Assembly: GCA_965223665.1 (NCBI GenBank)
Contig: OZ245011.1
Coordinates: 3,392,001 to 3,456,000, forward strand
DNA: 64,000 nt
Source: Nitrospinaceae bacterium
GTDB taxonomy: Bacteria; Nitrospinota; Nitrospinia; Nitrospinales; Nitrospinaceae
Direction: 5' to 3'
This document shows, in pieces, positions 190-38,097 of the stretch (position 1 is its first letter; each line of letters opens with the position of its first letter). Below the pieces are notes generated by a model, which was given only the letters and a program-made list of their open reading frames with translations, was not told the DNA's origin and ran no database searches. A program made the position numbers and the translations under genes.

Positions 190-2454
190 ATGAGCAAGAG
201 CCTATCAGGAAATACTGAATCATTATCGCAATTTGAGGGAAAAGGAATTTCCCAGATTTTGCGATGGCGTCTATCAAAAGACCGTATGGCGACCCGTGTA
301 GTGGTTGTCAGCGGTCTTTCAATTATTTTTGTGATTCTTGCGATCTTTTTTGTTATAGCCGCTGAAGTATTTCCTTTATTTAAAGCTCCGAAGCTAACTC
401 CACTCACGGATATGGACTTACAAATTTCCTCTTCCCCTTTAGCATTCGGTGTAGATGAATATCAAGAAGTTGTTTACGTTGTAACAAAATCAGAAGTAAA
501 ATTTTTTTCTATAAAAAAAAATCAAAGCTATAGCCCGGTGTCATTGCCGGGTTTAGGGGATTCTAAAATTGTTGCTGCTTCTTCTCCTTTCTATAACTCT
601 ATTGTTCTTAGTTTGTCTGATGGTAGAGTCCTTCCCGTTCAAATTGATTTTCGCGTTAGTTACGCAAATGACCAACGTGAAGTAATTGGAAGTTTTAAAT
701 CGAATTCTCCCCTAAATTTAAGTTCAAGTGAAAAGCCAATTACGCTTTTATCTCATATAAAAAATGAGGATGGATTTTGGATTGCAGGGGTTACTGGAAA
801 TCATAATCTTTCAGTAGTTGAAATTACGCAAAAGAAAACTTTGATGGGAACCATCAAACAAAAAGAGAGTCGAAGTGAATTTGTAATTCCCAACAAGGGA
901 AAAATTACAGCGCTCGCTATGGGTCAGAACCCTGACCGTGTATATATTGGAACCGAATCCGGTCAAATAATTGCAGTCAATCTCAACCCTCGTGAAGGAG
1001 TCGATGAAATTGAAACACTTGGAGCAGTTTCTGACAGTACCAGTGGGGTTGCGGGATTTGGGTTTTTAAAGGGAGGAATGACCCTGGTTGCAATGGATAA
1101 TTCTGGTGGATTATCGAGCTTTCATTTTCAAAGAGGTGAAGATAATAGATATCGAATGGAAAGAGTGTATCAGTTTGAACCTCATTCCGCTTCACCCACA
1201 ATTTTTGCTGCCTCTCAAAGGAATAAAGGTTTTATCACTGGAGACGCAACGGGGACAATAAAATATCATTACGGAACATCCGGAGAAACGCAATATGCAA
1301 TTGAAATAGGGGATGATCTGTCTCTTCAGAAAGCTTTATTGGCTCCTAAAGATAACGGAATATTGGCAATTAATGAAAAGGGGCAACTTAAAAGATGGAT
1401 GGTAGAAAATCATCACCCTGACATCACTTTGAATACTCTTTTCAATGAAGTGAAGTATGAAGGATATCCTGAGCCCGATTATGTTTGGCAATCCACCGGG
1501 GGTACAGATGATTTTGAATCAAAAATTAGTTTAACCCCGCTTATCTTTGGAACTTTAAAAGGAACATTCTATGCCATGTTAGTTGCGATTCCGATTGCAT
1601 TGTTTGGTGCTTTTTATGCTTCGCAATTTATGAATCCGTCTCTAATGGGTGTGGTGAAACCAACCGTGGAATTTATGGCAGCCATTCCCAGTGTGGTTTT
1701 AGGATTTTTTGGGGCATTGTGGCTTTCTCCAAGGGTTGAGACTTTATTGCCTTCCATAATAATTTTTCCTTTTGTTACAGCAGGCTTAGTTTATTTGTAC
1801 CAATGGGCCGGAGATCGATTCACCTGGCGCTCATCTTCGGAAAAAAATTCCATAAAAGATTTTTGGATTTTGATTTTTATAGTTTTGATTGGAAGTCTAA
1901 TTGCTTATATGGCAGGACCAATTTTTGAATCTAATTTTTTTGATGGAAATTATAAAACCTGGTTGCGGGAAACCTTGGGTTTGGGCTTCGACCAAAGGAA
2001 TTCTTTGATCGTCGGATTAGCGATGGGTTTTGCGGTGATTCCAATTATTTTTACCATTGCGGAAGATTCTTTATCTAACGTTCCCAGACATCTCACTGCT
2101 GCTTCTTTAGCCGTAGGGGCAACTCCTTGGCAAACGGCTATGCAAGTTGTGTTGCCAGCAGCAATTCCGGGAATTTTTTCTGCAGTGATGATTGGTTTGG
2201 GTCGGGCAGTTGGGGAAACAATGATTGTGTTAATGGCGACTGGAAATACTCCTATTTTGGATTGGAATATTTTTAACGGATTTCGGGCCATGTCAGCAAA
2301 CATTGCTGTGGAACTACCCGAAGCCCCTGAAGGGGAAACTTTGTTTCGGGTATTATTTTTGACCGCATTAATTTTATATTTCATCACTTTTATTTTTAAT
2401 TCCTTGGCCGAATGGGTTCGATTGCGACTTAGAAAGAAATATCAATTGTTATGA
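190..2454 (+). CDS. pstC: Phosphate ABC transporter permease PstC, long form with large beta-rich periplasmic domain
   Basis: C-terminal WQSTGGTDDFESK, LIFGTLKGT and GLGRAVGETMIVLMATGN motifs; position in pst operon. Confidence 0.92.
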   Translation: MSKSLSGNTESLSQFEGKGISQILRWRLSKDRMATRVVVVSGLSIIFVILAIFFVIAAEVFPLFKAPKLTPLTDMDLQISSSPLAFGVDEYQEVVYVVTKSEVKFFSIKKNQSYSPVSLPGLGDSKIVAASSPFYNSIVLSLSDGRVLPVQIDFRVSYANDQREVIGSFKSNSPLNLSSSEKPITLLSHIKNEDGFWIAGVTGNHNLSVVEITQKKTLMGTIKQKESRSEFVIPNKGKITALAMGQNPDRVYIGTESGQIIAVNLNPREGVDEIETLGAVSDSTSGVAGFGFLKGGMTLVAMDNSGGLSSFHFQRGEDNRYRMERVYQFEPHSASPTIFAASQRNKGFITGDATGTIKYHYGTSGETQYAIEIGDDLSLQKALLAPKDNGILAINEKGQLKRWMVENHHPDITLNTLFNEVKYEGYPEPDYVWQSTGGTDDFESKISLTPLIFGTLKGTFYAMLVAIPIALFGAFYASQFMNPSLMGVVKPTVEFMAAIPSVVLGFFGALWLSPRVETLLPSIIIFPFVTAGLVYLYQWAGDRFTWRSSSEKNSIKDFWILIFIVLIGSLIAYMAGPIFESNFFDGNYKTWLRETLGLGFDQRNSLIVGLAMGFAVIPIIFTIAEDSLSNVPRHLTAASLAVGATPWQTAMQVVLPAAIPGIFSAVMIGLGRAVGETMIVLMATGNTPILDWNIFNGFRAMSANIAVELPEAPEGETLFRVLFLTALILYFITFIFNSLAEWVRLRLRKKYQLL

Positions 2455-4070
2455 ATAAATTTTGGACACGCGGTGAATTTTTAATTTTGTTCACAGGGTC
2501 AGTATTGGCTTTGTCAATGGTCCTTTTGTGTGGTTTGATCATAGTGTTATTTGCGAACGGATTGAGCCATTTTGTTCCAAGTGATATTGCTTTATTTAAA
2601 TTAAATGATGGAAAAGTCGTGATGGGGGAATTGACGGATCGAGAAAAAGTATTTAATTCCACCGGGGACGAATCTAAAGAAAATTTATATCGAATACAAA
2701 TTAAAAGAGCGAATCGAGATGTTTATGGTCAGGATTTTACCTGGATTGATGAATCTCAGGTGAAAGAAAAATCATTTCCTGATGATGTAACTGTTTTTGA
2801 AAGGACTGAATGGGGAAACTTTTTTGGATGGGCGAAAGAAATTTGGGACGGGAATAAGCTTTTGTCGAAGGAACCCACTAAAGTGTTAAGCCTTATAGAA
2901 GAGAAATTACCGGAAGTGAAATCGGTTGTTGATCAAATCCATCATATTCAAAAAAACGAAATTGGAAGAGTGAACTATTATTTAGAAAAAAGCCGCCTTA
3001 AAATTAAAAAACTTTCTCTTAAGGGAATTAATACGGGTGATGATATTGATGAATTGAATAAGGAAATTAAAGATTGGAGCAGACAATATCAGGCCTATGA
3101 AAAAGAGTTATTGAAATTACGTACCTCATTAACCGAGCGTGCGGTGGTGGAAACTGTTGAAGGACAAAAGATAAGTTTACCTTTAAGTTCGATACTAAAA
3201 GTATATCAGCCGAATACCTATGGTATTTTTTCTAAGATAAGTTTTGGTTTTGAAAAAGCCTGGAATTTTATATCTATGGATCCCCGAGAATCCAATACTG
3301 AGGGAGGTGTATTCCCCGCATTATTTGGAACGGTGTTTATGGTTTTGATCATGAGCATGGTGGTCACTCCATTTGGTGTGCTTGCAGCTATTTTCTTAAG
3401 AGAATATGCGAAACAAGGGACCATGATTAGTATGGTACGGATTGCAGTAAATAATTTAGCCGGCGTTCCTTCGATTGTTTTCGGTGTTTTTGGAGTTGGT
3501 TTTTTTATTTACTTTGTCGGTGGAACAATCGACCAAGTATTTTTTCCTGAAGCTTTGCCCACTCCAACATATGGAACGGGTGGGATTCTTTGGGCTTCTT
3601 TGACCTTAGCTTTATTGACGGTTCCTGTAGTTATTGTAACAACAGAGGAGGGGCTTTCTGCCGTTTCCCAAGGAATTCGAGAGGCAAGTTTAGCAGTAGG
3701 TTCTACAAAATTTGAAACTTTGAAAAATGTAGTGCTGCCGGCCGTAATGCCTTCGGTTTTGACTGGGCTAATTTTGGCGATGGCACGTGCGGCAGGGGAA
3801 GTGGCTCCATTAATGATAACTGGAGTTGTAAAAATGGCACCTTCGCTACCGATGGATTCCTTTTTTCCTTTCATTCATTTAGACCGAAAGTTTATGCATT
3901 TAGGATTTCATATTTTTGATGTTGGTTTTCAGTCACCTAATATAGATGCAGCAAAACCTATGGTATATACGACTACATTATTACTCTTGGGTCTTATACT
4001 AATACTAAACAGTTTAGCCATTGCTCTTAGGACTCGTCTGAGAAGAAAGTTGCGGGTTTCCAATATTTAA
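2451..4070 (+). CDS. pstA: Phosphate ABC transporter permease PstA, long form with coiled-coil periplasmic insert
   Basis: [29 protein letters not shown] and [10 protein letters not shown] motifs; ATGA overlap with pstC. Confidence 0.92.
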
Positions 4071-11879: not shown

Positions 11880-13595
11880 GTGGATACTAAAGCTATAAAT
11901 TCATTTCATTTCCAACACCCAAAGGAGCGGGAAGCTAAGGTATTATTGGTTTACCCAAGTACCCAGGATGTTGCGCTGGCCAATTTAGGCTTTCAAAGGG
12001 TGTATACCATTCTAAACAATTTAGATGGAGTCATTTGCGATCGATTTAGTCTCCCTCAGGGTTGGACCCCCGATCAGTCTACCTTAAAAGCTGATCAAAT
12101 GCGCTCTCATGATTTGGGTTTGTCCCCTCAAGAATTTGACATCATTGCTTTTTCTATTTCTTTTGAACCGGATTATCTCCATGTTGTAACTATTCTTAAG
12201 TATTTTAACATTCCAATAGATAGTAAGGAACGGGGATTAGAATTTCCGCTAATTGTTGCGGGTGGTTCTGCATTATTTATTAACCCCGAACCCCTTGCAG
12301 AAATAATGGACTTATGTTTTGTAGGAGAGGGAGAGGGATTGGCCAATGCATTTTTTAAGGAATTCACTGAAGGTTTTTGGAAAAGTAGAGATGAGTTATT
12401 AAGGAATTCAGAAAAAATTCCCGGGATTTACATCCCCAGGTTTTTCCAACCTGTTTACGAAGGAGAATATCAAGTAGACTTAAAACCCAAGGGTAGTTTT
12501 TCAGATAGGATAATTCGTCATTGGGTTCCGGAAAACTCTAAAGATCTTTGCACACATTCTGAGTTACATGATACCAGTTCGACTTTCAAAGATATGGCAT
12601 TGATGGAAGTGACTCGTGGTTGTATTTGGGCTTGCCGCTTTTGCACGGCAGGTTTTATTTACCGTCCACCTCGGGAACCGAACCTTGAAGACACATATAA
12701 TTCACTTTCGGAAGCTTTACATAATCAGGGCAAAGAAATGTCAACCATTGGTTTGGTGGGACCTTCAGTGACCGATCATCCAGAATTAATTCCATTAGCT
12801 CAACGGCTGGTTGAAGAGGGAAAGAAACTTTCTTTTTCTTCCCTACGAATGGAAACCTTGACAGAAGAGTTAGTGGATTTAATTTTACAAAGCGGTCAAA
12901 AAACTATCACAGTAGCTGTGGATGCACCCTCTGAACGAATGCGTGATGTCATAAATAAATCGGCTAGTGATGACTTTATTGTAGATAAATGTCGATTCCT
13001 TACTGAAAAAGGGATTTTGCATTTGAAGATTTATTCCATCATTGGCCTACCTTTGGAGCAGGAAGAAGATATTGACCAATTTATTGATCTTGTGAAATCT
13101 ATCCAGGGGGCATATGTGGATGCAAGTCGGTCTCGAGGAAAGATCGGAAGTATTACAATCAGTTTAAGCCCATTAGTTCCTAAACCAGGAACTCCATTTC
13201 AATGGCACCCTATGGAATCAGTTTCAGTTTTGAAAAAAAGATTTATGAAAGTACGTAAAGCTCTCAGTCGAATTCCAAATATTAATTTGTCTTTTGGTTC
13301 TCCTAATGAGGCTTATTTACAGACATTTTTATCTCGAGGTGACCGGAGGGCTTTAAATTTTTTTAAAGAATATTTATTGAATAATCATGATGCAAAACGC
13401 GCCTTGCAAAAAATGAATCCCCATCCAGACCATGTGGTTTATAGGCAATTCAATAAGGATGACTTTTTACCTTGGGACGTTATTGACCATGGTTATAGCC
13501 CAAATTTTTTATGGCAGGATTATCAAAGAGGATTGCGTGCAAAGCATACTCCTGTATGTGATACGGCTACTTGTAAAATTTGCGGAATTTGCTAG
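11880..13595 (+). CDS. Radical SAM protein (TIGR03960/YgiQ-like, B12-binding-like N-terminus)
   Basis: EVTRGCIWACRFC (CxxxCxxC), NPEPLA, PKPGTPFQW and C-terminal CDTATCKICGIC. Confidence 0.85.
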   Translation: MDTKAINSFHFQHPKEREAKVLLVYPSTQDVALANLGFQRVYTILNNLDGVICDRFSLPQGWTPDQSTLKADQMRSHDLGLSPQEFDIIAFSISFEPDYLHVVTILKYFNIPIDSKERGLEFPLIVAGGSALFINPEPLAEIMDLCFVGEGEGLANAFFKEFTEGFWKSRDELLRNSEKIPGIYIPRFFQPVYEGEYQVDLKPKGSFSDRIIRHWVPENSKDLCTHSELHDTSSTFKDMALMEVTRGCIWACRFCTAGFIYRPPREPNLEDTYNSLSEALHNQGKEMSTIGLVGPSVTDHPELIPLAQRLVEEGKKLSFSSLRMETLTEELVDLILQSGQKTITVAVDAPSERMRDVINKSASDDFIVDKCRFLTEKGILHLKIYSIIGLPLEQEEDIDQFIDLVKSIQGAYVDASRSRGKIGSITISLSPLVPKPGTPFQWHPMESVSVLKKRFMKVRKALSRIPNINLSFGSPNEAYLQTFLSRGDRRALNFFKEYLLNNHDAKRALQKMNPHPDHVVYRQFNKDDFLPWDVIDHGYSPNFLWQDYQRGLRAKHTPVCDTATCKICGIC

Positions 13596-13600
13596 TAAGT

Positions 13601-14515
13601 ATGGAAACGATAGACACTTTAGAAAAAATGAACAAGCTTCCAGCGGATCGCCGTTTTTTTGATATTAATGATTTGTGGTATTTCCCCAAACGGTGGGCCG
13701 TCCAATTTTTTTATCCTCTTCCAATTTCAGCGAATCAGATAACATTCCTTGCCTTAATCATGGGATTAATTTCTGCAGGAATATATTTTTGGGGAGGGAA
13801 TACTGCTCTCATATGGGGAGCTATCTTTTTATATCTGAAATCATTTTTGGATAATGTAGATGGTAACTTAGCAAGAGTTCGTGAAGAAGAATCCCGGTTA
13901 GGCCGATTTTTAGATTCCTTTTCGGATTTTGTAGTTGCTGTTCTTGTTTATGCAGCGGTAACTTGGAATTTATCCTTATTATCTTTGCAGCCAGGATACT
14001 ACTGGGCTTTAGGTGGGATGGCCTTGCTCAGCACTTTGATTCAGTGCAGTTATTGGGTTTATTATTACGTAAATTATACACAGTGGGTGGGAACTTATGG
14101 ATTAAATCGAGTCGATGAGTCTGTTACCGCTCAGGATAAAGAAAAATTAGAAACTGGAGAAATTTCCAGTATTACATTTTTCTTGCAGAGGTTTCATCAA
14201 TGGGTTTATGGGTGGCAAGATCGTTTAATCCAACAGTTTGATTTAATTTGTCGCCGTATTGCAGGTTATCAAGAGATAGAAAGGGAAAGAGAAATTTGGT
14301 TTGCTGATCAGAAATTTCTCAAGCTAATAGGACCCCTGTGTGTTTGTACGAATTCAATGGGGTTTGTGGTTTTTTCTTTGTTGGGAAAAATTGAGTTATT
14401 TTTTTTAGTTGTGGTAGTACTTGGAAACATCTATATGATTGGACTTTCAATCTTAAAAATTAGATGGTTTCGACGAAGTAAATTTAAATGGAAGGCAAAG
14501 GATCCTTCTTTTTAA
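13601..14515 (+). CDS. CDP-alcohol phosphatidyltransferase family protein
   Basis: DNVDGNLAR......GRFLDSFSD signature. ATG at 13601 preferred over the TTG at 13580. Confidence 0.88.
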   Translation: METIDTLEKMNKLPADRRFFDINDLWYFPKRWAVQFFYPLPISANQITFLALIMGLISAGIYFWGGNTALIWGAIFLYLKSFLDNVDGNLARVREEESRLGRFLDSFSDFVVAVLVYAAVTWNLSLLSLQPGYYWALGGMALLSTLIQCSYWVYYYVNYTQWVGTYGLNRVDESVTAQDKEKLETGEISSITFFLQRFHQWVYGWQDRLIQQFDLICRRIAGYQEIEREREIWFADQKFLKLIGPLCVCTNSMGFVVFSLLGKIELFFLVVVVLGNIYMIGLSILKIRWFRRSKFKWKAKDPSF

Positions 14516-14535: not shown

Positions 14536-15195
14536 CTAATTTCTTCTGTAATCAAAATTAGTTTCTTTAAATTTTTTGGATTGGAAAACCAGTTTAATTT
14601 TTAGCCTAAGATATTCCATTAAAAATTCGTGACGTTTTAATACATCTATTTCTTCCAGAAAAAACTTTTTTTGATCCAAAGACATATCGAATAGATAAGA
14701 AATGCGGTCTACAGCTTGGCTTAGGGTTTTACAATCTGATAAATCTGGTTTCACTTTTTGTGAGTTTTTTTCAGGTAGGGAATCGATAAATTGTCTAAAA
14801 GTGCCCATTAAACTATTCAATAAAGTATTATGGGGTTCCAATGGTTGATCGTTTACAGGATTTAGCCACTCTACTTCTGCTTGACGGTAAGAAGTGTCTC
14901 CAAATTCATTAATTATTTTGAATCTCTTTTGCCCCTTCAAAACTATATCAAATTTACCATCATTTAAACGGTTCCATTTTTCTAAATTTCCTGCACATCC
15001 TATAGGCTGAACTTCGGGTTTATTATAATATTCATTTTCCCATCCAGGCTTAAGGAGAACCATTCCTATCCACTGATTGCTTTTAATAGAATCTTCAACC
15101 ATGTCACGGTATCTAGGTTCAAAAATGTGAAGGGGTAGCGGAGTGTCCGGAAAAAAAACTGAAGAAGGTAAAGGAAAAATGGAAATTCGATTCAT
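14536..15195 (-). CDS. Lon protease N-terminal (substrate-binding) domain protein
   Basis: IFPLPSSVFFP..PLPLHIFEPRYRDMV motif; no AAA or protease domain. Confidence 0.88.
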   Translation of the reverse strand: MNRISIFPLPSSVFFPDTPLPLHIFEPRYRDMVEDSIKSNQWIGMVLLKPGWENEYYNKPEVQPIGCAGNLEKWNRLNDGKFDIVLKGQKRFKIINEFGDTSYRQAEVEWLNPVNDQPLEPHNTLLNSLMGTFRQFIDSLPEKNSQKVKPDLSDCKTLSQAVDRISYLFDMSLDQKKFFLEEIDVLKRHEFLMEYLRLKIKLVFQSKKFKETNFDYRRN

Positions 15196-15427
15196 TTTTT
15201 TCTTTTTATTAAGTCGGAAAAGCTATTTTTAATAAATTTGGTTGTATAGGGATTTTAACATCCTTAAAATTAAGGAAAAAGGGTTTCCTTATAAATTAGA
15301 ATAAACCATAAATACCCTTTTTAGGGTATTTTGTTAAATGAAATAAATCCTTCTGCGATTTAATGAATCCACATTATGTTACAAAAAGCATTTTTTCGGC
15401 CCTTTTTAATCTTAAAACCGTATAGCT

Positions 15428-16828
15428 ATGATCGTTGTACCTGAAAATATTTGTGCAGAAATACAGGGATCTCTTATTCAATCAGGCCTCTATTCGTTAG
15501 AGCATAATGATCCTGTAAAAAATTGGAGAATAGCGGCAGAGCCCTATAAAGTTTCCTCTCAAGATTTAGACTTTTTCAAAAAATTAGGGGGAATTTTATT
15601 AGAGTTTTATTCGGCTCTAAATAGCTTATACCTGGAAAGCTATAAGGGGAAAGCTCCTGAATGGGTAGCAGATTATTTGGATCGTGGCAAGCCTTCCGAC
15701 TTAGTAGAATATTCTAGAATGAAAAAATTTAAGAATATTCTACCTGGAATAATTCGGCCGGATATCATGGTAAAGGAAAAGGGGTTTGCGGTTACAGAGT
15801 TGGATTCAGTCCCAGGAGGGTTTGGATTAACGGCCCATTTAATGAAAGCATATTCCAATCATGGATGGGAAATTTGTGGTAGTGAGAATGATATTACAGA
15901 ATCATTTTTTAAAATGTTAGGAAATTCTTCAAATGTAACCAATCCAACTGTTGCCATTATTGTTTCTGATGAGGCTGTGGATTACCTTGCAGAAATGGAA
16001 TTTTTAAGTAAGGAGTTAAGAAAAAAAGAACGCAAGGTTTATGTATTGCAACCGAGACAGGTAATATTTTCTGAAGAGGGATTGTTTTTTGAAAATGAAG
16101 GTAAAAAAGTTTGCATTGATATTGTTTATCGATTTTTTGAATTATTTGATTTGAAAAATATTCCTAAGTCTGAATTATTTATGTATAGCAACAAAAAAGG
16201 AAAAATTAATACCACGCCACCCTATAAGCCGTATTTGGAAGAAAAGTTGAATTTTGCCTTGTTTCATCATCCTGCTCTCAGCGTTTGGTGGGAAAAACAC
16301 CTTAAATCTGAAACTTTTGAGACTTTAAATCATCTAATTCCAAAAAGTTGGATTCTGGATAACCGGCCTTTACCTCCTCAAGGAGTGATTCCTAACTTGA
16401 AATTAAGGAATAAGGCAGTCCAGGATTGGGCAGAGTTAAGTTCCCTATCTCAAAAGGAACGTGAACTGGTTATTAAGCCCTCAGGATTTTCCCCAGAGGC
16501 TTGGGGAAGTCGGGGTGTAACCATAGGCCATGATGTTTCAAGTGAAATTTGGCAGGAAACATTAAGTGAAAGTTTAGATCGATTTGAAAGCCAACCTTAT
16601 ATTTTGCAGGAATTTCATAAGGGAAAAAGAATTCAAATGAGTTATTGGGATCCACAAACAGATACAATGGAAGAAATGCAGGGTAGAGTTAGGCTCACTC
16701 CTTATTATTTTATTGTTAACCAAGAGGCCCAATTAGGCGGTATATTGGCGACCATTTGTCCTCAGGATAAAAAGAAAATCCATGGAATGGTTGATGCGAT
16801 TATGGTGCCTTGCGCGGTCGAAAATTAA
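15428..16828 (+). CDS. Circularly permuted ATP-grasp ligase (glutathione synthetase / glutathionylspermidine synthetase-like fold), function unknown
   Basis: Motif order IRPD...TELDSVPGGFG, DIVYRFF, P.K..LEEK, LVIKPSG...WGSRGV, YILQEF. Confidence 0.65.
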   Translation: MIVVPENICAEIQGSLIQSGLYSLEHNDPVKNWRIAAEPYKVSSQDLDFFKKLGGILLEFYSALNSLYLESYKGKAPEWVADYLDRGKPSDLVEYSRMKKFKNILPGIIRPDIMVKEKGFAVTELDSVPGGFGLTAHLMKAYSNHGWEICGSENDITESFFKMLGNSSNVTNPTVAIIVSDEAVDYLAEMEFLSKELRKKERKVYVLQPRQVIFSEEGLFFENEGKKVCIDIVYRFFELFDLKNIPKSELFMYSNKKGKINTTPPYKPYLEEKLNFALFHHPALSVWWEKHLKSETFETLNHLIPKSWILDNRPLPPQGVIPNLKLRNKAVQDWAELSSLSQKERELVIKPSGFSPEAWGSRGVTIGHDVSSEIWQETLSESLDRFESQPYILQEFHKGKRIQMSYWDPQTDTMEEMQGRVRLTPYYFIVNQEAQLGGILATICPQDKKKIHGMVDAIMVPCAVEN

Positions 16829-16844
16829 ATAACAATTATTAATT

Positions 16845-17084
16845 ATGATACGACTATATAATATTGATGGTTGCGGTTATTGTAGTTTAGTTCGTAACAC
16901 TTTAAAAAATTTGGAAATTGAGTACGAAAAAATTGATGTTCCCTGGCCACACCATTTACGAAAAGAAGTGCAAGAAGTTTCAGGACAAACTACAGTGCCG
17001 GTATTGGTTGATGGGGATGTTGTTTTGGCTGATGAATATGAAATAATTGATTACCTGAAAACAACCTATTCTAAGAAAATTTAA
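16845..17084 (+). CDS. Glutaredoxin / GST-N-like protein
   Basis: CGYC active site; SGQTTVPVLVDGD (cis-Pro loop); 79 aa. Confidence 0.88.
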   Translation: MIRLYNIDGCGYCSLVRNTLKNLEIEYEKIDVPWPHHLRKEVQEVSGQTTVPVLVDGDVVLADEYEIIDYLKTTYSKKI

Positions 17085-17106
17085 TCTCCCAAACAAAAGG
17101 ATATCC

Positions 17107-18240
17107 ATGGAGCTTTGGCAAAAGCAATTAAGCGGCAGCGTAGTTAAAGTACAGGACTTGCCATTTATATCCCGTTCTCCAGAGTACTTAGAGAAATTGA
17201 AAAAGGTATCTGAGGTTTTTCCTATAAGGATTAATTCATATTTTATGGATCAGATTAAACAGGAAAATGATCCTCTTTGGAAACAGGTTGTTCCCACTTT
17301 AGAAGAGTTAGACGATTATTTAGCAATGGAGGAGTCATTGGAAGCCGATCCATTGAATGAAGAAAAAGATATGCCTGTTCCCGAGTTGGTGCATAGATAT
17401 CCTGATCGGGTTTTATTAATGCTAAATAACCAATGTCCAATTATTTGCCGCTTTTGTACTCGAAAAAGAAAAATTGGTTTTCCTGGTATTGTGACTAGAG
17501 AGACTTTACGTCAAGGAATTGAGTATATCGCAGATCATCCCGAAATTCGGGATGTAATTATGTCCGGGGGGGATCCCTTATTAGTGCCTGATAAGGAATT
17601 AGAACGAATATTGCGATCATTACGAGAAATCCCCCATCTGGAAATAATTAGAATAGGGACCAGGGTTCCTGGGACGTTGCCAGATCGTGTTACACCTGAA
17701 CTCTGTGATATGTTAAAGAAGTACCATCCCATATACTCCAACTTACATTTTAACCACCCGGATGAAATTACACCGCAAGTGGAGCTAGCTTGTAATCGAA
17801 TGGCGGATGCGGGCATTCCATTGGGAAGCCAAACGGTTTTGTTAAAGGGGGTGAATGATGATGTGGAGATAATGAAACAACTGGTTCAAAAGTTGTTAAA
17901 AATTCGAGTTAAACCATATTATCTATACCAAGCGGATATGACTATGGGAACCGACCATTTTCGAACTCAGGTTGAGAAAGGGTTAGAGATCATTCGTGGA
18001 TTGCAGGGGCATACTTCTGGAATGGCAGTACCTTATTTCGTAATTGATACGCCAGGCGGTGGTGGTAAGGTACGTTTGTTACCCGACTCGATTGTAGAGT
18101 TTAGTGAAGAAGAAATTATTGTGAAAAATTACGAAGGCAAGATTTTCAAGTATCCCCAACCTGCAAAACAAACTCCCACTAAAAAAACGATTTCATCCCC
18201 TGTTTCATCCTCGCAAAGTAAGATTTGTGAGATGGCTTAA
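17107..18240 (+). CDS. kamA: KamA-family radical SAM protein, lysine 2,3-aminomutase-like
   Basis: HRYPDRVL, CPIICRFC, SGGDPL, PYYLYQAD and VIDTPGGGGK (PLP lysine). Confidence 0.85.
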   Translation: MELWQKQLSGSVVKVQDLPFISRSPEYLEKLKKVSEVFPIRINSYFMDQIKQENDPLWKQVVPTLEELDDYLAMEESLEADPLNEEKDMPVPELVHRYPDRVLLMLNNQCPIICRFCTRKRKIGFPGIVTRETLRQGIEYIADHPEIRDVIMSGGDPLLVPDKELERILRSLREIPHLEIIRIGTRVPGTLPDRVTPELCDMLKKYHPIYSNLHFNHPDEITPQVELACNRMADAGIPLGSQTVLLKGVNDDVEIMKQLVQKLLKIRVKPYYLYQADMTMGTDHFRTQVEKGLEIIRGLQGHTSGMAVPYFVIDTPGGGGKVRLLPDSIVEFSEEEIIVKNYEGKIFKYPQPAKQTPTKKTISSPVSSSQSKICEMA

Positions 18241-18259
18241 ATATAAATTTCATTCCCCT

Positions 18260-18289
18260 TTGACATTGGATAGAGAATTCTAATATATT
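18260..18289 (+). promoter_or_regulatory. Putative sigma70 promoter for the DUF502 gene
   Basis: TTGACA (18260-18265), 18 bp spacer, TATATT (18284-18289). Confidence 0.45.
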
Positions 18290-18323
18290 AAATAATTACA
18301 ATGATTATTAGAGGCTTCTCTTT

Positions 18324-18947
18324 GTGAGTTTCATCAAAAACAATTTGATTGCGGGATTGTTAATAACAATTCCAATTGTCTTGACGTATATTCTCTTTTC
18401 TTTTGTAATTAATGCTTTAGACAGGTGGATGGCTCCCCTGATTTCAACCGTAATTATAAAGTTGCACTTACCTTTACCCGAAGACTTTTATTTACCGGGG
18501 CTTGGTGTTGTAATAGTGATTTTCTTCATTTTTCTTATGGGTTTATTGGGGACCAATTATTTTGGAGAAAAGTTAGTTCAAACAGGTGAGGCGTTGTTGA
18601 ATAAGACTCCCTTTGTTCGGGGTATATACAATACCATTAAGCAGGTTATAGAGACTATTTCTAAAACTAAATCGAATTCCTTTAAAGAATTAGTGTTGGT
18701 GAAATACCCTCACCAATCTCTTAGCATGATTGGCTTGGTTGCTGGCACAACTAAAGGGGAAGTGGCTACTAAATCAGAAGATGAATTAATTAATGTGTTT
18801 CTGCCCTTATTGCCAAATGTAACATTAGGATTTTACGTTGTGATCCCCAAAAAGGATGTGACTCCCTTAGAAATGGGTTTGGAGGAAGGAATGAAATATT
18901 TAATGTCATTTGGGATAGTTGATAAGGATCAATCCAGGGCAAAATAG
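18324..18947 (+). CDS. DUF502 family membrane protein
   Basis: AGLLITIPI, PFVRGIYNTIKQ and VFLPLLPNVTLGF motifs. Confidence 0.85.
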   Translation: MSFIKNNLIAGLLITIPIVLTYILFSFVINALDRWMAPLISTVIIKLHLPLPEDFYLPGLGVVIVIFFIFLMGLLGTNYFGEKLVQTGEALLNKTPFVRGIYNTIKQVIETISKTKSNSFKELVLVKYPHQSLSMIGLVAGTTKGEVATKSEDELINVFLPLLPNVTLGFYVVIPKKDVTPLEMGLEEGMKYLMSFGIVDKDQSRAK

Positions 18948-18967: not shown

Positions 18968-19570
18968 TTATTGTCTTACTTTTCGGCTGTCCCGTTTTCC
19001 GGCAATTTTTTCACTGATATTTTTGGCTGATCTGGTCTTCATTTTTGCAAGTACTTTTCCGGCAATTTTACTCTTCATTTTAGAAATTATTTGAATTGCC
19101 ACGCCTTGGTCCATTGCCTCTAAAAGAGTTGCAGCTTCGGTTGGTTTCATAGCGGAGTATACTTTTACAAGAGATTTTACATTTTTTTCAATTAAATCTC
19201 TTTTGATTCCTACTTGCTCTTCACTTCTTGCCAGGGCTTCTTCAATTTTTTTTAAGTCCTTTAAAACTTTTTCTTCAAGGATTTTTAAATTACTTTCCCT
19301 GAGTAATAATTCCTCCTCACGTTTTTTAAGGTCTTCATTTTTCTTTGCAATCATTTCAAGCATTCGCAGGGTTTCAGGATTTAACGATGAAGGATTTTGA
19401 GGAAGTTTAGGTTTTTCTTTCAGGGGTTCTTTAATTGGAGATTCAGTGGTTGATTCAAGTTCCGCATTATTTGGGTTTTTCCCCTGTTCTGTTGATATAT
19501 CAGAATCTTGTGTAAAGCCTGGTGTAGACAGCCCAAATAAAACAAGGAATAAAAATATAATAATTCTCAT
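18968..19570 (-). CDS. MotE/FlbB-like flagellar protein (MgtE-N-like C-terminus)
   Basis: Signal or TM segment, coiled coil, LVKVYSAMKPTEAA..L..MD...I..MK...AGKVLAKM; immediately downstream of fliJ. Confidence 0.75.
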   Translation of the reverse strand: MRIIIFLFLVLFGLSTPGFTQDSDISTEQGKNPNNAELESTTESPIKEPLKEKPKLPQNPSSLNPETLRMLEMIAKKNEDLKKREEELLLRESNLKILEEKVLKDLKKIEEALARSEEQVGIKRDLIEKNVKSLVKVYSAMKPTEAATLLEAMDQGVAIQIISKMKSKIAGKVLAKMKTRSAKNISEKIAGKRDSRKVRQ

Positions 19571-20004
19571 AGGGACCTCTTATGCCATCGAGAGGATGCA
19601 ACCTCATCAAAAAAAGCTGTTTCTTGTTTCCTTTTTTTTTGTTGAAATTGAATTAAAGCCTGATCTTTTAGAATTTCCAATGTTTTGCGTTTTCGCATTG
19701 CTTCAATCAACTCATCTCTTTTTTCTGAAGCTTTTTTTTCTATTTCAGATATTATTTGACCTTGAGTTTGTTCCTTGCTTTTGATGGCTTGAAAATAATT
19801 TCCATAAAGCATTAATGTGTTCGATTCTGTGGGTGCTTCGAGCATTTTTACAAATTGTTTTTTATTATGATTTTCTTCATTTTCCATATCAGATAATGCA
19901 TTCTGTTGTTGGACCAAATGGGATCTGACCACTCCAAAATCTTTTTGAATCAATTCTTCCTGATTTTTCCTTAATCTTAATAAAGTTTCGAAGCGAAATT
20001 TCAT
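19567..20004 (-). CDS. fliJ: Flagellar export protein FliJ
   Basis: MKFRFETLLRLR start, coiled coil, RKTLEILK...E..FFDE; follows fliI. Confidence 0.88.
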   Translation of the reverse strand: MKFRFETLLRLRKNQEELIQKDFGVVRSHLVQQQNALSDMENEENHNKKQFVKMLEAPTESNTLMLYGNYFQAIKSKEQTQGQIISEIEKKASEKRDELIEAMRKRKTLEILKDQALIQFQQKKRKQETAFFDEVASSRWHKRSL

Positions 20005-20007
20005 TAT

Positions 20008-21354
20008 TTAATTCTTAATTAAATGATTCAGTTGTTGAACACTTTCTTCCAAGGAAATCGACTCCTGAATTCCTTGTCTTAGATATTCATTAAATTTTTC
20101 AACTTTATTGATTGCCAGGTCAATTTTGGGATTACTTCCTGGGGTATAAGCTCCAATATTGATTAAATCTTCAGCTTCCCTGTAAGTGGCTAATATGTCT
20201 TTGAACTTCATGGAAACTTCATGATGTTCAGGTTTAATAACATCTATCATTAAACGACTAATACTTTCTAATATGTCAATTGCTGGATAGTGGTTGTGGG
20301 AAGCTAAACGACGAGATAATACAATGTGGCCATCAAGTATGGCGCGAACTGCATCAGATATCGGTTCATTGAGGTCGTCTCCTTCTACTAAAACCGTATA
20401 AAGACCTGTAATGGTTCCATTACCCTTCGAAGTCCCTGCCCGTTCCAGCAATTTGGGAAGTAGGGAAAACACAGAAGGTGTATAGCCCCGGGTAGTTGGA
20501 GGTTCACCGACAGAAAGACCAATTTCTCTCTGAGCTAATGCAAACCGGGTAACCGAATCCATCATTAAAATTACGTTTTTTCCCATATCTCTAAAATATT
20601 CTGCGATGGTTGTGGCAATGAAAGCTCCTCGCAACCGAACCAGGGGAGGCTGGTCAGAAGCAGCTGCCACAACTACTGACTTTTTTAAACCATCAGGACC
20701 CAAGTTTTCATCAATAAATTCTTTTACTTCTCGTCCCCGCTCTCCAATTAGTGCAATTACATTTATTTCCGCCTCTGTATTCCGTGCAATCATTCCCATT
20801 AATACAGATTTTCCCACACCGGTACCTGCCATTATTCCTATTCGCTGTCCACGAGCGCATGTGATTAATCCATTCAATGCGCGAATACCTACATCGAGAG
20901 GGCGTGATATTGGTGATCTTTCTAAGGGATTTAGGGGGGTGCCTATTATGGAATACTCCTTTCCCATTGGGATAGGACCCTTGTTATCCAAGGGGTTTCC
21001 ATTCCCATCAATCACTCTACCCAATAATCCCGGGCTAACATTTAAAGTAGGAGATTCTTCTTTTGCTTCAACGATACTTCCGGGAACCAATCCAGCCATA
21101 TCACCCAAAGCCATAAGCAATATTTTGTTATCACGGAAACCCACGACCTCAGCATCCACTGATTTTTTGTTTTGCGGTGAATGGATGGTACATATACTTC
21201 CAAGAGAAACTGCAGGTCCATCTCCTTCTAATATAAGTCCGGTAACACGATTTATTCGGCCACTTTTTTTTACCAAAGGCAAACTATTTATATAAGAATT
21301 ATATTTTTTTAAATCGATCATGTTTTGCATTAAATAACTACTCGTTTGTTTCAA
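20008..21354 (-). CDS. fliI: Flagellar export ATPase FliI
   Basis: GQRIGIMAGTGVGKS, IGERGREV, DSVTRFA and GEPPTTRGY motifs. True start probably 21330 or 21321. Confidence 0.96.
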   Translation of the reverse strand: MKQTSSYLMQNMIDLKKYNSYINSLPLVKKSGRINRVTGLILEGDGPAVSLGSICTIHSPQNKKSVDAEVVGFRDNKILLMALGDMAGLVPGSIVEAKEESPTLNVSPGLLGRVIDGNGNPLDNKGPIPMGKEYSIIGTPLNPLERSPISRPLDVGIRALNGLITCARGQRIGIMAGTGVGKSVLMGMIARNTEAEINVIALIGERGREVKEFIDENLGPDGLKKSVVVAAASDQPPLVRLRGAFIATTIAEYFRDMGKNVILMMDSVTRFALAQREIGLSVGEPPTTRGYTPSVFSLLPKLLERAGTSKGNGTITGLYTVLVEGDDLNEPISDAVRAILDGHIVLSRRLASHNHYPAIDILESISRLMIDVIKPEHHEVSMKFKDILATYREAEDLINIGAYTPGSNPKIDLAINKVEKFNEYLRQGIQESISLEESVQQLNHLIKN

Positions 21355-22162
21355 ATGAAGTCGATTCTTCAGGAATGGGGGCAGTATTCAGTATTTTTTC
21401 AATTTGATCATGTAGGGTTTCAATTCCAGCGTGAATGGTTCCAAAATTTGAGTCTATTAAGCAATGGCCTTGAGGAACGGAGGTGTGTCCCTCTATTTTT
21501 AAATTATGGACATCCTGAAATTGTTCTTTTAACTCTGGTTTATACTTATCTACATAACCCTTGTCAGTAGGATGGACTTTAATAGTCATTGTTTCTCGGT
21601 CGAGAATGGATTGGACGGCAAGTCGAATGATATCTTGAATACTGTTTTCTTTATTTTCTAGTTCAACCTGTAAAATTTTCTTTGAAATTCCCACAATCAT
21701 TTCTAACATTTCCCGCTCGACTTTAGGAAACATTTGTTTTCTAAACTTACTAAGTTCTTCTATCAAGTTTTGGGTAGTAGTGATAAAGGGCATGAATTCT
21801 TTTGCAGCATTAGATTCTCCTGCTTTAAAACCTTCAGCAAAACCTTCGTCATAGCCATCTTTTTTGGATTGAGACCGGATATTGTCAGCTTGAACTTTTA
21901 TTTTCTCCATCGCGTCTGCAAAAATTTCCTTAACACCTTCTCTGGCTTTTTTTACATTGCTTACCTCAAAATTTCTAGCTTGTTCTGAGTCAAAAGTGAA
22001 CTTCCGTTTTACAGATTGAGTATTGGAAACAAATTCATTTAGTTGAAATGGTGTTGGGTTTTCAGATTGTATATCGGGGTTTTCTTCAATAGGGGTGGTC
22101 TCGTTGAGTGAAGAATTTGAAAAATCATTACTACGTTTAAACAAGCTCTTCCCCTCCGCCAC
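21338..22162 (-). CDS. fliH: Flagellar assembly protein FliH
   Basis: GxxxG repeats (GYDEGFAEGFKAG), IKVHPTD and GHCLIDSNFG; between fliG and fliI. Confidence 0.9.
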   Translation of the reverse strand: MAEGKSLFKRSNDFSNSSLNETTPIEENPDIQSENPTPFQLNEFVSNTQSVKRKFTFDSEQARNFEVSNVKKAREGVKEIFADAMEKIKVQADNIRSQSKKDGYDEGFAEGFKAGESNAAKEFMPFITTTQNLIEELSKFRKQMFPKVEREMLEMIVGISKKILQVELENKENSIQDIIRLAVQSILDRETMTIKVHPTDKGYVDKYKPELKEQFQDVHNLKIEGHTSVPQGHCLIDSNFGTIHAGIETLHDQIEKILNTAPIPEESTSFETNE

Positions 22163-23150
22163 CTATTACGAGTTTGCCTTCTTCTTCCAGGCGTTTGCAT
22201 ATAGCAACAATCTTTTGCTGGCATTTTTCAACTTCACTAACTCTTGTGGGTCCAAGAGATTCTAAGTCTTCCCTCAGCATGGTGGCAGCCCTTTCAGACA
22301 TATTAGAGAAAATTTTATTTTGCAAATCTTCGCTTGCAGTTTTAAGGGAAATTAAGAGGTCTTCTTGATTAACTTCCTTAAGGACTAGTTGTAAGCCGTT
22401 GTCGTCGATTTTAAGAATATCTTCAAAAGTAAATCGCAAGTTTCGAATTTCATTTGCCATATCCGGATCTACTTCATCCATGGCCGTTAATATAGAAGTC
22501 TCAGTGGCACGATCCAGGGATCCCATAATTTGTGCCGCTTGAACTACGCCTCCCATTTTGCTTCCAGATACTGCTCCAGAGGAACGAAACTCAGATTGTA
22601 ATGCTTCATCTAATTCTCGTATAACTTGTGGAGAAACTCTTTCTAAAGTTGACAGTCTATGTAAAATTTCCATTCTAGACTCTTCAGGCATTTCTCTTAG
22701 AGTAGCGCTACTAACTTGTGCTTCAAGATGGGCCATGATGATTGCAGCAGTTTGAGGATGTTCATTTTTTAGAAAAGTTGCAATTACTTTAGGTTCTAAC
22801 ATTCGGACCGTTTCTAAACCACCTCCTAAATCTTCTCCTGGGGTTGTAATATTATTGAGTATTTCGGAGGCTTTAACGGGGTCCATAGCCCGCATCAAAG
22901 TGGTCTTCAAAAAATCTAATCCTGGGATACCCAATCCCCCTGTCCCTGTTTCGACGTTTTCGTAAAATTCTTTTGTGACATTATCCATGACAAACATGTC
23001 TACATCCCCAAGGGCAGACATGTAGTTACCAATGGTTTGGATTTCACGTTCTTCCATTTCAGCCAAAATTTTTGCAGCACCTTCCTCACCCAAGGACATC
23101 AGAAATATTGCGGCTTTTTCTGGACCTGTATATTTTCTATCTTGGGCCAT
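22137..23150 (-). CDS. fliG: Flagellar motor switch protein FliG
   Basis: GPEKAAIFLMSLG, EHPQTAA, FTFEDI and NMSERAA motifs. Confidence 0.97.
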   Translation of the reverse strand: MAQDRKYTGPEKAAIFLMSLGEEGAAKILAEMEEREIQTIGNYMSALGDVDMFVMDNVTKEFYENVETGTGGLGIPGLDFLKTTLMRAMDPVKASEILNNITTPGEDLGGGLETVRMLEPKVIATFLKNEHPQTAAIIMAHLEAQVSSATLREMPEESRMEILHRLSTLERVSPQVIRELDEALQSEFRSSGAVSGSKMGGVVQAAQIMGSLDRATETSILTAMDEVDPDMANEIRNLRFTFEDILKIDDNGLQLVLKEVNQEDLLISLKTASEDLQNKIFSNMSERAATMLREDLESLGPTRVSEVEKCQQKIVAICKRLEEEGKLVIGGGGEELV

Positions 23151-23165
23151 AATTTGGGTTCCTTA

Positions 23166-24749
23166 CTAGGATCGATCTTTTAACCATTTTCGGATAATTC
23201 CAGCAGCATATTTAGGATCCGCTTCTACAAATTCATTGACGGATTGACGCATGTCCGTCATTTCTTTATTTGCGCGTTGGATTCGCTTCTTTTCTTCTTC
23301 AGCCTCTAACTCTTCATGGCTGGGTAAAGGTTCTTCTTCAGGGACCACTTCTACACTCGTTGAAACCCATCGAACCATGGGCATTAGAATTTTTAATATG
23401 AATATTAATAATAGTATAACAGCGCCTAGAATTTTTGCACCGGTGATGATCATATCCCAACGCTCTTCAGAGGCCAATTTTTCAGCTCTTTTCAGGTCTT
23501 CAGATTTATCAAACTGTACATTTTCAAGTTGGATTTTATCTCCCCGTTTTTCATTGAATCCAACGGCTGTTTTAATAATTTCTAAAAACTTTGCCATCTC
23601 TTCGCTGGACCGTGGTTTGTATTCGGGGGGATCTCCTTGAAGAAGACCATCTACCAAAACGCTTACGGATAGCCTTTTTATTTCACCTGATGTTTCAGTG
23701 ATATGTTTAATAACTTTATTAATTTCATAATTGAAAGTCTGTTTTTCTTTCGATTTTTGTGCAGGATTGCCACCCGTTGTCTGACCACCCTGTCCACCAG
23801 GGACCAGAGACTGAACTCCAGGAACTCCACCAGCAGGGGAAGAACCAACGGACGATTCATTGGAATTTTGTTCACTGCGAACCACCTGAGAATCAGGATC
23901 AAAGATCTCTTCTGTCCGTTCAACTTTGTCAAAGTTAATTTCTGCTGTAACTTTTGCAATTACTTTCTCCGGGCCTAAGGCTTCTTCAAACATTCCAATA
24001 ATGCTTGCTTCTAATTCTTGTTCGACTTTTCTTTTATACTTGTAATTAGATGCAGTAAAAAGTGCGGATTCGGAGGAAGTTCCCTTTTGTCCTGAAAGTA
24101 AATTCCCGTTAAAGTCTACCAAGACTACGTTATTAGCAGGCAATCCTTCAACACTGCTTGATACTAGATGGACAATCCCTTGAATTTGATGTTCGGTAAG
24201 AGATTTACCTGATCGGATTTTTAACATAACTGAGGCTTTTCCCTCAGGTTTATCTTTTAGAAAAATTTCTCCTTTTGGAATTACTAAATGAACACGCGCT
24301 TGATCAACAGCATCAAGGGATTTAATGGTTCTAGAAAGCTCCCCTTGCAGAGCCCGTTGGAAATTTAATTTTTGAATAAATTCAGTCATTCCTAAAGGGG
24401 TGTCTTCAAATAATTCCAATCCAACTTCATTCCCTTCAGGTAAACCTTTGCTGGCAAGATTGATGCGAGTTTCGTGAACCACTGAAGCAGGGACACGAAT
24501 ATTTTTACCGTTGTTTGAAAGTTCATATTCAATATTTCTTGTTTTTAATTCTTCAACAACTGCAGAAGCATCTTCAGGGGATAAATTTGCAAATAGTAAC
24601 TGGTGGTCAGGAGATTGGATCCAGATCACCATGGTCAATAGAGAAGCAACAAATGCGGCCGCCAAACCTAATGCGATAGCTTTATTCGTAGGAGAGAGGT
24701 CCTTAAATCGGGTAATTAAATTTTGAATGAACTGGAGGAAATTGTCCAT
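23166..24749 (-). CDS. fliF: Flagellar MS-ring protein FliF
   Basis: GLELFE..LGMTEF, RALQGELSRTI, ARVHLVIP, ASV.L, YEINK and RLSVSVLVDG motifs. Confidence 0.96.
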   Translation of the reverse strand: MDNFLQFIQNLITRFKDLSPTNKAIALGLAAAFVASLLTMVIWIQSPDHQLLFANLSPEDASAVVEELKTRNIEYELSNNGKNIRVPASVVHETRINLASKGLPEGNEVGLELFEDTPLGMTEFIQKLNFQRALQGELSRTIKSLDAVDQARVHLVIPKGEIFLKDKPEGKASVMLKIRSGKSLTEHQIQGIVHLVSSSVEGLPANNVVLVDFNGNLLSGQKGTSSESALFTASNYKYKRKVEQELEASIIGMFEEALGPEKVIAKVTAEINFDKVERTEEIFDPDSQVVRSEQNSNESSVGSSPAGGVPGVQSLVPGGQGGQTTGGNPAQKSKEKQTFNYEINKVIKHITETSGEIKRLSVSVLVDGLLQGDPPEYKPRSSEEMAKFLEIIKTAVGFNEKRGDKIQLENVQFDKSEDLKRAEKLASEERWDMIITGAKILGAVILLLIFILKILMPMVRWVSTSVEVVPEEEPLPSHEELEAEEEKKRIQRANKEMTDMRQSVNEFVEADPKYAAGIIRKWLKDRS

Positions 24750-24792
24750 TTTTTGAGAGGATTATATTAAGAAATATTGAATGAAAAAGTAA

Positions 24793-25230
24793 TTATCTGC
24801 CTAATTCTATTGCTCGCATTGCCATCGATTTTGCTGCATTTATTGCTTGGATATTGGCTTCAAAGGATCGAGAGGCATTGATTAAGTCAACCATTTCCTG
24901 GACCATATTTATATTTGGAAAAGCTACATAGCCTTCTTCATTTGCATCAGGGTGACTTGGATTGAATACTAATTTGGGTTGCGTTTGGTCCTCGGAGATG
25001 TTTGTGGTGATTACTTGTCTTACCTGGTCAGCAAGTTCTTCGTTTAATTGCGAGGAAAAGTCATCGCTTATTGGAAGGGAAGAGACGACAATATCTTTTC
25101 TTCGATAGGGTCCACCTTCAGGGGTTCGCGTGGTCTCAATATTGGCTAAGTTACTTGAGATGGTTTCCATTCGCTTTCTCTGAACCGTTAGGCCTGAAGA
25201 GCTAATATTTATCGATGTAGAAAATTCCAT
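24793..25230 (-). CDS. flgC: Flagellar basal-body rod protein FlgC
   Basis: SGLTVQRKRM..ISSNLAN..TT...GGPYRRK, HPDA..EGYV..PN and ASRSFEAN motifs. Confidence 0.97.
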   Translation of the reverse strand: MEFSTSINISSSGLTVQRKRMETISSNLANIETTRTPEGGPYRRKDIVVSSLPISDDFSSQLNEELADQVRQVITTNISEDQTQPKLVFNPSHPDANEEGYVAFPNINMVQEMVDLINASRSFEANIQAINAAKSMAMRAIELGR

Positions 25231-37963: not shown

Positions 37964-38097
37964 TTTAAGATTCCTGTGTTTAATTTTAACTTTTAGGTAG
38001 AAAACTTTACTTGTAGGATTCAATCCTATAATATGATCTTACGCAATATACTTTCCATAATATTTTTAATTTTAAAATTTTTTTGTTCTAATTCAAA

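Follow-up and report, generated by a model that had tools for sequence, protein, structure and literature searches.

A 64,000-nucleotide stretch of a Nitrospinaceae genome (assembly GCA_965223665.1, contig OZ245011.1; hereafter the window, within which all coordinates are given) contains a compact operon that encodes an ATP-grasp ligase from an uncurated family, a small glutaredoxin, and a lysine 2,3-aminomutase (LAM) of the KamA family. We propose that, in general outline, this operon makes a small beta-lysine amide and that the glutaredoxin reduces a disulfide arising in the pathway, a scheme that we regard as evenly poised between right and wrong. All three open reading frames (ORFs) are on the plus strand: the ligase, P0001, spans positions 15428..16828 (466 amino acids), the glutaredoxin, P0002, positions 16845..17084 (79 amino acids), and the kamA product, P0003, positions 17107..18240 (377 amino acids). 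The intervening gaps, read directly from the sequence, are 16 bp (16829-16844) and 22 bp (17085-17106); the ORF coordinates and the sequence thus bear out the arrangement of three co-oriented, closely spaced genes described in the initial annotation of this DNA, which was made from the sequence alone.

The identity of the ligase was apparent from its fold and not from database models. No Pfam or NCBIfam model matched P0001 at an E value of ≤0.1, no Pfam family was matched even at E ≤ 10 (PF03917, PF03199, PF03738, PF04174, and PF14403 included), and a family profile compared with the PDB sequences yielded no real relative. When 46 diverse members of the family were scanned against Pfam at E ≤ 10, GSP_synth was weakly matched by two (best E, 4e-4) and CP_ATPgrasp_2, likewise weakly, by two, whereas the glutathione synthetase (GS) models PF03917 and PF03199 were matched by none. 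An AlphaFold2 model built from a 34-sequence alignment had a predicted local distance difference test (pLDDT) value of 84.3 and a predicted template modeling (pTM) score of 0.88, and its weak stretches were loop regions (residues 317-319, 355-363, and 449-452). A Foldseek search of the PDB with this model produced 92 matches at E ≤ 0.001, with a probability of 1.00 for human GS, which was also the top match (8fbz; E, 5e-17; TM-score, 0.66). The leading matches were human, yeast, and potato GS together with soybean homoglutathione synthetase (hGS), with E values from 5e-17 to 4e-14, TM-scores of 0.59 to 0.66, and 12 to 14% identity; next came 3n6x, the fungal ligase Cp1B (9cjn), and nematode GS-like effectors, followed by Escherichia coli glutathionylspermidine synthetase (GspS), YjfC, YgiC, and trypanothione synthetase. 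In the Atlas, the nearest named cluster was bacterial GS (PF03199/PF03917; score, 0.95). Judged by this model, P0001 is a circularly permuted ATP-grasp carboxylate-amine ligase with the GS/GspS fold, in a family without a curated sequence model. Because Foldseek places the model with GS, hGS, GspS, YgiC/YjfC, and CP_ATPgrasp structures such as 3N6X, the fold that had been predicted from the sequence is correct.

The motifs on which that prediction relied are all present in P0001, namely, R110-P-D112, E124-L-D126-xx-G130-G-F-G133, Y234-R-F-F, L270-E-E-K273, K350-P-x-G353, G360-S-R-G363, and L393-Q-E-F396, and most of them are invariant or nearly so whether 34 or 46 family members are aligned. 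The candidate ATP- and Mg2+-binding residues include R110, D112, D126, E189, R345, K350, Q394, and R422, which are invariant, and E124, E271, E272, and K273, which are nearly so. The family comprises at least 6,991 sequences (clustered at 90%), which fall into 1,030 clusters at 50% identity and are found in at least 580 species-representative genomes; where any source names its members, they are called "hypothetical protein." Eight longer representatives contained no Pfam domain, and no homologs of 817 to 2,330 amino acids were found, which is weak evidence against fused forms. One copy, in a metagenome-assembled genome of Bacillota (L069:100-1512), is broken into ORFs of 132 and 324 amino acids and may contain a frameshift or be a pseudogene.

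P0003 passed the cutoff of the KamA subfamily model TIGR00238 (304.8 bits; cutoff, 199.2) and missed those of all the equivalogs, among which AblA (TIGR03820) scored highest (441.7 bits; cutoff, 525.4), followed by glutamate 2,3-aminomutase (386.7 bits; cutoff, 650), arginine 2,3-aminomutase (334.8 bits; cutoff, 600), and EpmB (TIGR03821; 247.4 bits; cutoff, 369.3). The match to the AblA model extends over positions 10 to 367 of 417, and the C-terminal ∼50 residues of AblA and LAM are absent from P0003, so that the shortfall in the AblA score is explained by the missing region. Residues 4 to 358 of P0003 align with the LAM of Clostridium subterminale (2a5h) at an E value of 3.5e-114. In this alignment, the Fe-S cysteines C110, C114, and C117 correspond to C125, C129, and C132 of 2a5h, R119 corresponds to R134, D277 to D293, D314 to D330, and K321 to the lysine K337 that carries pyridoxal 5'-phosphate (PLP), and all seven positions are invariant in the 25 operon KamAs compared, which come from four phyla. 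We take D293 and D330 of 2a5h to be the residues that hold the epsilon-ammonium group of lysine and that are replaced in the glutamate enzyme, and R134 to be the one that binds the carboxylate; because both of these presumed lysine-binding aspartates are invariant, P0003 is read as a lysine enzyme. Taken together, the scores and the alignment lend good support to the prediction that P0003 is a true lysine 2,3-aminomutase, nearer to LAM and AblA than to EpmB, and a beta-lysine synthase. The 64-kb window contains no epmA, efp, ablB, lysine-fermentation, gshA, or gshB gene, in agreement with the initial annotation, which had pointed to a KamA without its usual partners next to it and had named an EpmB identity among the outcomes that would undo its proposal; on the score and within the window, to which this result is confined, P0003 does not appear to be EpmB.

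P0003 also lacks the Zn-site cysteines of the clostridial LAM, with aspartate at the position equivalent to C268 and without the C-terminal cysteine cluster. Its C terminus (residues ∼355 to 377) is a low-complexity tail with a single cysteine, and such a tail recurs in most, but not all, of the operon KamAs. A connection between KamA cysteines and the glutaredoxin was considered and discarded: neither the lone cysteine of the tail nor C200 and C229 show any pattern with the presence of the glutaredoxin gene.

The middle gene encodes a protein that matches the Pfam families Glutaredoxin (PF00462; 49.5 bits; cutoff, 22.9) and GST_N_3 (53.5 bits), and it scores below every glutaredoxin and mycoredoxin equivalog cutoff in NCBIfam. 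Among 22 operon copies, C10, C13, R39, S46, Q48, and the V51-P52-V-L segment, in which V51-P52 is the cis-Pro motif, are invariant. A profile of the family compared with the PDB matched N-terminal domains of glutathione S-transferases (GST-N) best, with matches over the full length, followed by glutaredoxins and 2lqo (mycobacterial Rv3198.1). By these profile matches, P0002 is a small CxxC glutaredoxin or GST-N-like thiol-disulfide oxidoreductase, and its likeness to GST-N fits, without proving it, the binding of a glutathione-like ligand. The CGYC active site that the initial annotation had emphasized is indeed present in the window, but it is not a trait of the family: Nitrospinota have CGYC (with one CPYC), Nitrospirales have either CPEC or CPDC, and two deep Nitrospirota have CPYC. 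The CPEC and CPDC copies rule out CGYC as a mycoredoxin-like family signature.

To place the operon in a broader context, the neighborhoods of the ligase gene were compared among the best 80 of at least 580 genome matches, each with 6-kb flanks, in which relatives of P0002 and P0003 were located by tblastn; 12 loci with less than 1.5 kb downstream of the ligase were set aside, and 68 were assessed. The complete ligase-glutaredoxin-kamA set is retained in 49 of these 68 loci, kamA alone accompanies the ligase in 2, and neither gene does in 17. Because 49 loci share these three genes with their order and strand preserved, the arrangement is not due to chance, and the conserved linkage expected by the initial annotation was thereby recovered. 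The distribution is uneven, with the full set in 47 of the 48 loci from Nitrospinota (11 of 11) and Nitrospirota (36 of 37, the remaining locus, L041, having kamA only). An unclassified bacterium (1 of 1) and Armatimonadota (1 of 1, in the order ligase-kamA-glutaredoxin) also possess all three genes. Among Bacillota, none of three loci is complete: one, from Peptococcaceae (L042), contains kamA only, and two contain neither gene. All 15 Poribacteria loci likewise lack both. Overlap between the ORFs of the ligase and KamA is seen in two loci, L042 and L057. Since the 15 Poribacteria ligases and 2 of the 3 from Bacillota have no adjacent kamA or glutaredoxin gene, the linkage is specific to certain clades.

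All neighbors other than the glutaredoxin gene and kamA vary between clades. In Nitrospirota, a divergent LPG_synthase_C gene lies upstream (29 loci) and a dCTP deaminase gene lies downstream (30 loci); in Nitrospinota, as in the window, the neighbor is a gene for a Lon-N protein; and in Poribacteria, serA is found upstream and a PhyH dioxygenase gene downstream. The LPG_synthase_C protein, dCTP deaminase, the Lon-N protein, PhyH, and serA were each rejected as members of the pathway, being limited to one clade. In a quick IQ-TREE phylogeny, the window ligase falls within a Nitrospinota clade with 100% support, and the tree otherwise tracks taxonomy; furthermore, the window is collinear with another Nitrospinaceae locus (L002) over a segment that runs from the Lon-N gene to the DUF502 gene and fliJ-fliI-fliH-fliG. 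In view of this agreement between tree and taxonomy and of the synteny with Nitrospinaceae, the module is, as far as this phylogeny goes, inherited vertically in Nitrospinota and Nitrospirota. Given vertical inheritance and housekeeping neighbors, it looks like a part of core physiology and not like a secondary-metabolite cluster.

Two of these clade-specific neighborhoods deserve a brief description. The Nitrospirota LPG_synthase_C/DUF2156 gene, which is absent in Nitrospinota, is located ∼1.7 kb upstream of the ligase on the opposite strand in 29 loci (L015-L077; for example, L017:4031-4987). It encodes a stand-alone domain of the MprF-type, aminoacyl-tRNA-dependent lysyl-transferases, and the presence of a second lysine-related enzyme there may or may not be a coincidence. 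The Poribacteria ligases are flanked by serA (10 loci), a gene for a PhyH-family dioxygenase (8 loci), and a gene for an AhpD/CMD-family protein (8 loci), for example, at L065:7396-8229, L060:4234-5874, and L046:3292-3612; these genes may point to another amine substrate and another redox partner in that group.

Two cysteines close to the C terminus were compared between linked and unlinked ligases. Of 69 full-length ligases, 68 have C444 and 65 have C462, and in the model these residues flank the low-confidence loop 446-457, which is read as a C-terminal lid. C462 occurs in all 51 ligases linked to a glutaredoxin gene and is missing from 4 of the 18 that have none adjacent (L041, L042, L037, and L080), among which L041 and L042 are the only ligase-kamA operons without a glutaredoxin gene. 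With kinship ignored, the association has a Fisher exact P value of 0.0035, or 0.0019 after removal of three too-short loci, and on the tree C462 was lost in at least three events. On this correlation, and on it only, the glutaredoxin may act on a putative C444/C462 disulfide of the ligase. A prediction of a complex of the ligase, KamA, and the glutaredoxin, with the last as the partner, gave a score of 0.00, which counts neither for nor against binding. Nine positions differ in conservation between kamA-linked and unlinked ligases, and five of them (399, 422, 440, 451, and 457) are in the region of the C-terminal lid; for example, linked ligases read GRVRLTPYYF around residue 422, where those of Poribacteria read GRxLLRPYYF. 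In GS and hGS, a C-terminal loop decides the specificity for glycine or beta-alanine. The differences observed here would fit a different amine substrate in linked and unlinked ligases.

These observations can be assembled into a tentative pathway. First, and with good support, KamA would convert L-lysine into beta-lysine by radical S-adenosylmethionine (SAM) and PLP chemistry. Next, the ligase would phosphorylate a carboxylate with ATP, and an amine would attack the acyl-phosphate to form an amide; the fold provides for such a reaction, and the substrates are assigned by conjecture, with beta-lysine as the probable amine in place of the glycine of GS, the beta-alanine of hGS, or the spermidine of GspS. 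The carboxylate partner is more likely to be a small molecule than a protein. Finally, the CxxC glutaredoxin would reduce a disulfide of the pathway, either that of the C444/C462 pair of the ligase or that of a thiol-bearing product. The beta-lysine pathway put forward in the initial annotation is thereby supported in part, namely, in the fold, the linkage, and the lysine-type KamA; beta-lysine as the ligase substrate, gamma-Glu-Cys or glutathione as the acceptor, and a thiol as the product are candidates.

Several observations weigh against this scheme. Neither kamA nor a glutaredoxin gene adjoins the ligase in any of the 15 assessable loci from Poribacteria or in 2 of the 3 from Bacillota, and these unlinked ligases retain almost all of the conserved residues. 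On this evidence, the ligase may not depend on beta-lysine, unless kamA is located elsewhere in the genomes of these Poribacteria and Bacillota. Moreover, among 70 more distant representatives, 32 possess both cysteines, 27 C444 only, 5 C462 only, and 6 neither; because C462 is thus absent in 33 of the 70, the C444/C462 pair is, on the aligned sequences, a feature of a clade and not of the family.

One version of the pathway would have the operon produce a low-molecular-weight thiol, so far undescribed, with beta-lysine where glutathione has glycine or homoglutathione has beta-alanine, such as gamma-Glu-Cys-beta-Lys or some other beta-lysine amide that contains Cys; it would be the main redox buffer of nitrite-oxidizing Nitrospinota and Nitrospirota, and the GST-N-like glutaredoxin would serve this thiol alone, in the way that mycoredoxin serves mycothiol. 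We consider this version unlikely. Alternatively, the product could be a beta-lysine amide without a thiol, namely, a compatible solute or a polyamine-like metabolite, in which case the glutaredoxin would serve only to maintain KamA, an oxygen-sensitive enzyme, or the ligase in the reduced state in these aerobes. In cells, free beta-lysine has one known use, as the osmolyte N-epsilon-acetyl-beta-lysine, which is a precedent for such a solute, and the correlation between C462 and the glutaredoxin favors a protein disulfide over a product thiol. The hosts, furthermore, are aerobic nitrite oxidizers that, according to the genome paper on Nitrospina gracilis, lack catalase and superoxide dismutase; the same paper refers in generic terms to "thioredoxin and glutaredoxin systems" (PMC3578206). 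However, Nitrospirota from freshwater and soil conserve the operon to the same extent, which speaks against a solute specific to salt, and a GST-N-like glutaredoxin fits a glutathione-like ligand; a non-thiol amide retains some plausibility, even if it is not the outcome that we would expect.

A simpler explanation is that the ligase is the eukaryote-type glutathione (or gamma-Glu-Cys-X) synthetase of the lineage, acting on glycine with the glutaredoxin as its redox companion, and that KamA is merely cotranscribed, for example, for the synthesis of an osmolyte. The top structural matches, GS and hGS, the nearest named Atlas cluster, the resemblance of the glutaredoxin to GST-N domains, and the kamA-free ligases of Poribacteria and Bacillota all agree with this. 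Nevertheless, none of the 46 family members matches PF03917 or PF03199 even at E ≤ 10, identity to the GS structures is no higher than 12 to 14%, kamA is adjacent in 51 of the 68 loci, with ORFs that overlap in two phyla, and no AblB-type acetyltransferase was found among the conserved neighbors scanned, so that an ordinary GS with a bystander KamA is improbable. Ligation of beta-lysine to elongation factor EF-P by an ATP-grasp analog of EpmA, or to another protein carboxylate in the manner of RimK or LysX, has precedents in the KamA paralog EpmB, which serves EF-P beta-lysylation, and in the ATP-grasp enzymes RimK and LysX, which act on proteins, and it would agree with a conserved operon in a housekeeping context, but it is quite improbable given that P0003 scores far lower against EpmB (247.4 bits, under the cutoff of 369.3) than against AblA (441.7 bits), that neither efp nor epmA occurs in the window or among the conserved neighbor clusters scanned, that all of the nearest folds act on small molecules, and that the glutaredoxin would be left without a role.

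Upstream of the operon, an AT-rich divergent spacer of 232 bp (15196..15427), read from the sequence and presumed to contain the operon promoter, separates the ligase from a minus-strand gene (14536-15195) whose product consists of a Lon N-terminal domain only; a 9-bp-stem inverted repeat is located within the spacer at 15310-15331. Downstream, kamA is separated by 83 bp from the next gene (DUF502; 18324-18947), and this spacer contains a plus-strand sigma-70-like promoter of the DUF502 gene at 18260..18289 (TTGACA-18-TATATT), which matches the consensus at 11 of 12 positions and marks the 3' boundary of the operon. Both the divergent upstream region and the separate downstream promoter had been noted in the initial annotation and were found as described, although the promoter-like sites across the region are not in excess (10, compared with a mean of 10.8 in shuffled sequences), so that the single strong match at 18260-18289 is the one worth noting. 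A scan of positions 15000-18500 against Rfam at E ≤ 1 detected no riboswitch or other RNA family, and the GC content shows no anomaly.

Directly downstream of the module, a minus-strand flagellar operon (18968-25230) comprises flgC, fliF, fliG, fliH, fliI, fliJ, and an FlbB/MgtE_N-like gene and is syntenic with the Nitrospinaceae locus L002. Upstream, a gene for a TIGR03960-type B12-binding radical SAM protein (11880-13595) overlaps by 16 bp the start of a CDP-alcohol phosphatidyltransferase gene (13580-14515); other Nitrospinota loci likewise have this pair, which could be involved in lipid modification, upstream of the operon. Elsewhere in the window, a gene at 32966-34909 encodes a 647-amino-acid fusion of nicotinamidase (residues 22 to 201) and nicotinate phosphoribosyltransferase (residues 209 to 646). 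The pstC (190-2454) and pstA (2451-4070) genes are unusually long, encoding 754 and 539 amino acids with permease domains at the C terminus only. A 311-amino-acid protein (56163-57098) is similar to the FGE-sulfatase portion, the C-terminal half, of EgtB and SenA, with scores far under the cutoffs, and a thioredoxin gene, trxA, is located at 50067-50399. Finally, ∼1.2 kb without an ORF of at least 110 amino acids (38024-39265) lies in the part of the window with the lowest GC content (0.30 at 38001-40000).

In the open full-text literature, a scope that leaves most subscription journals and bioRxiv supplements outside, no paper was found on the operon or on the ligase family. Although the enzymes perform familiar chemistry, the ligase family is uncurated, and no description of its association with KamA and a glutaredoxin was found in the literature searched. 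Nitrospina and Nitrospira are responsible for most of the nitrite oxidation in oceans, soils, and wastewater plants, and a conserved, unannotated module in these bacteria is a candidate for a missing piece of the redox or stress physiology of nitrite oxidizers. A single assigned function would annotate thousands of ligase genes. If the proposed scheme is true, the module would be the first ATP-grasp route for free beta-lysine.

Compared with known systems, the ligase is closest to GS and hGS (2hgs, 8fbz, 1m0w, and 3kal), with which it shares a similar length, the circularly permuted ATP-grasp fold from one end of the chain to the other (TM-scores of 0.59 to 0.66), and the flexible glycine-rich loop, which is of low confidence in the model at residues 355 to 363. 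The fold is already able to accept a beta-amino acid, as hGS demonstrates. The ligase differs from GS in its low identity (12 to 14%), in the lack of a GS Pfam match, and in the linkage of its gene to that of a lysine 2,3-aminomutase, a linkage that no GS gene is known to have. GspS, trypanothione synthetase, and YgiC/YjfC (2io7, 3o98, 2vps, 7uk6, and 7uka) belong to the same fold class (E values of 3e-10 to 1e-8), with weak GSP_synth matches in 2 of the 46 members, and the GspS-type enzymes employ a basic amine, spermidine, as the nucleophile; unlike this group, the ligase has no amidase domain and no membership at the sequence level, and the structural likeness is below that to GS. Another likeness is to 3n6x (CP_ATPgrasp_2) and to Cp1B (9cjn), a fungal ligase of E-64 synthesis that joins a non-amino-acid carboxylate to an amino acid (Foldseek E values of 9e-14 and 3e-13, respectively). 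The CP_ATPgrasp_2 family typically has alpha-E and transglutaminase neighbors; these are absent here, and CP_ATPgrasp_2 itself is matched, weakly, by only 2 of the 46 ligases. The E-64 pathway, according to the abstract of its description, proceeds by successive condensation steps (PMC12568646). The glutaredoxin shares the CxxC thioredoxin fold and the cis-Pro motif with Mycoredoxin-1, small glutaredoxins, and GST N-terminal domains, and its profile matches 2lqo, whereas it differs from named glutaredoxins in falling under all NCBIfam cutoffs and in an operon motif that varies among CGYC, CPYC, CPEC, and CPDC. Finally, the operon as a whole resembles the AblA/AblB and EpmB/EpmA systems, in which a KamA-family aminomutase is likewise paired with an amide-forming enzyme for beta-lysine. 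Its KamA, however, misses both equivalog cutoffs and is without the C-terminal ∼50 residues of AblA and LAM, and the partner enzyme is neither a GNAT acetyltransferase nor a LysRS paralog but an ATP-grasp ligase, accompanied by a glutaredoxin.

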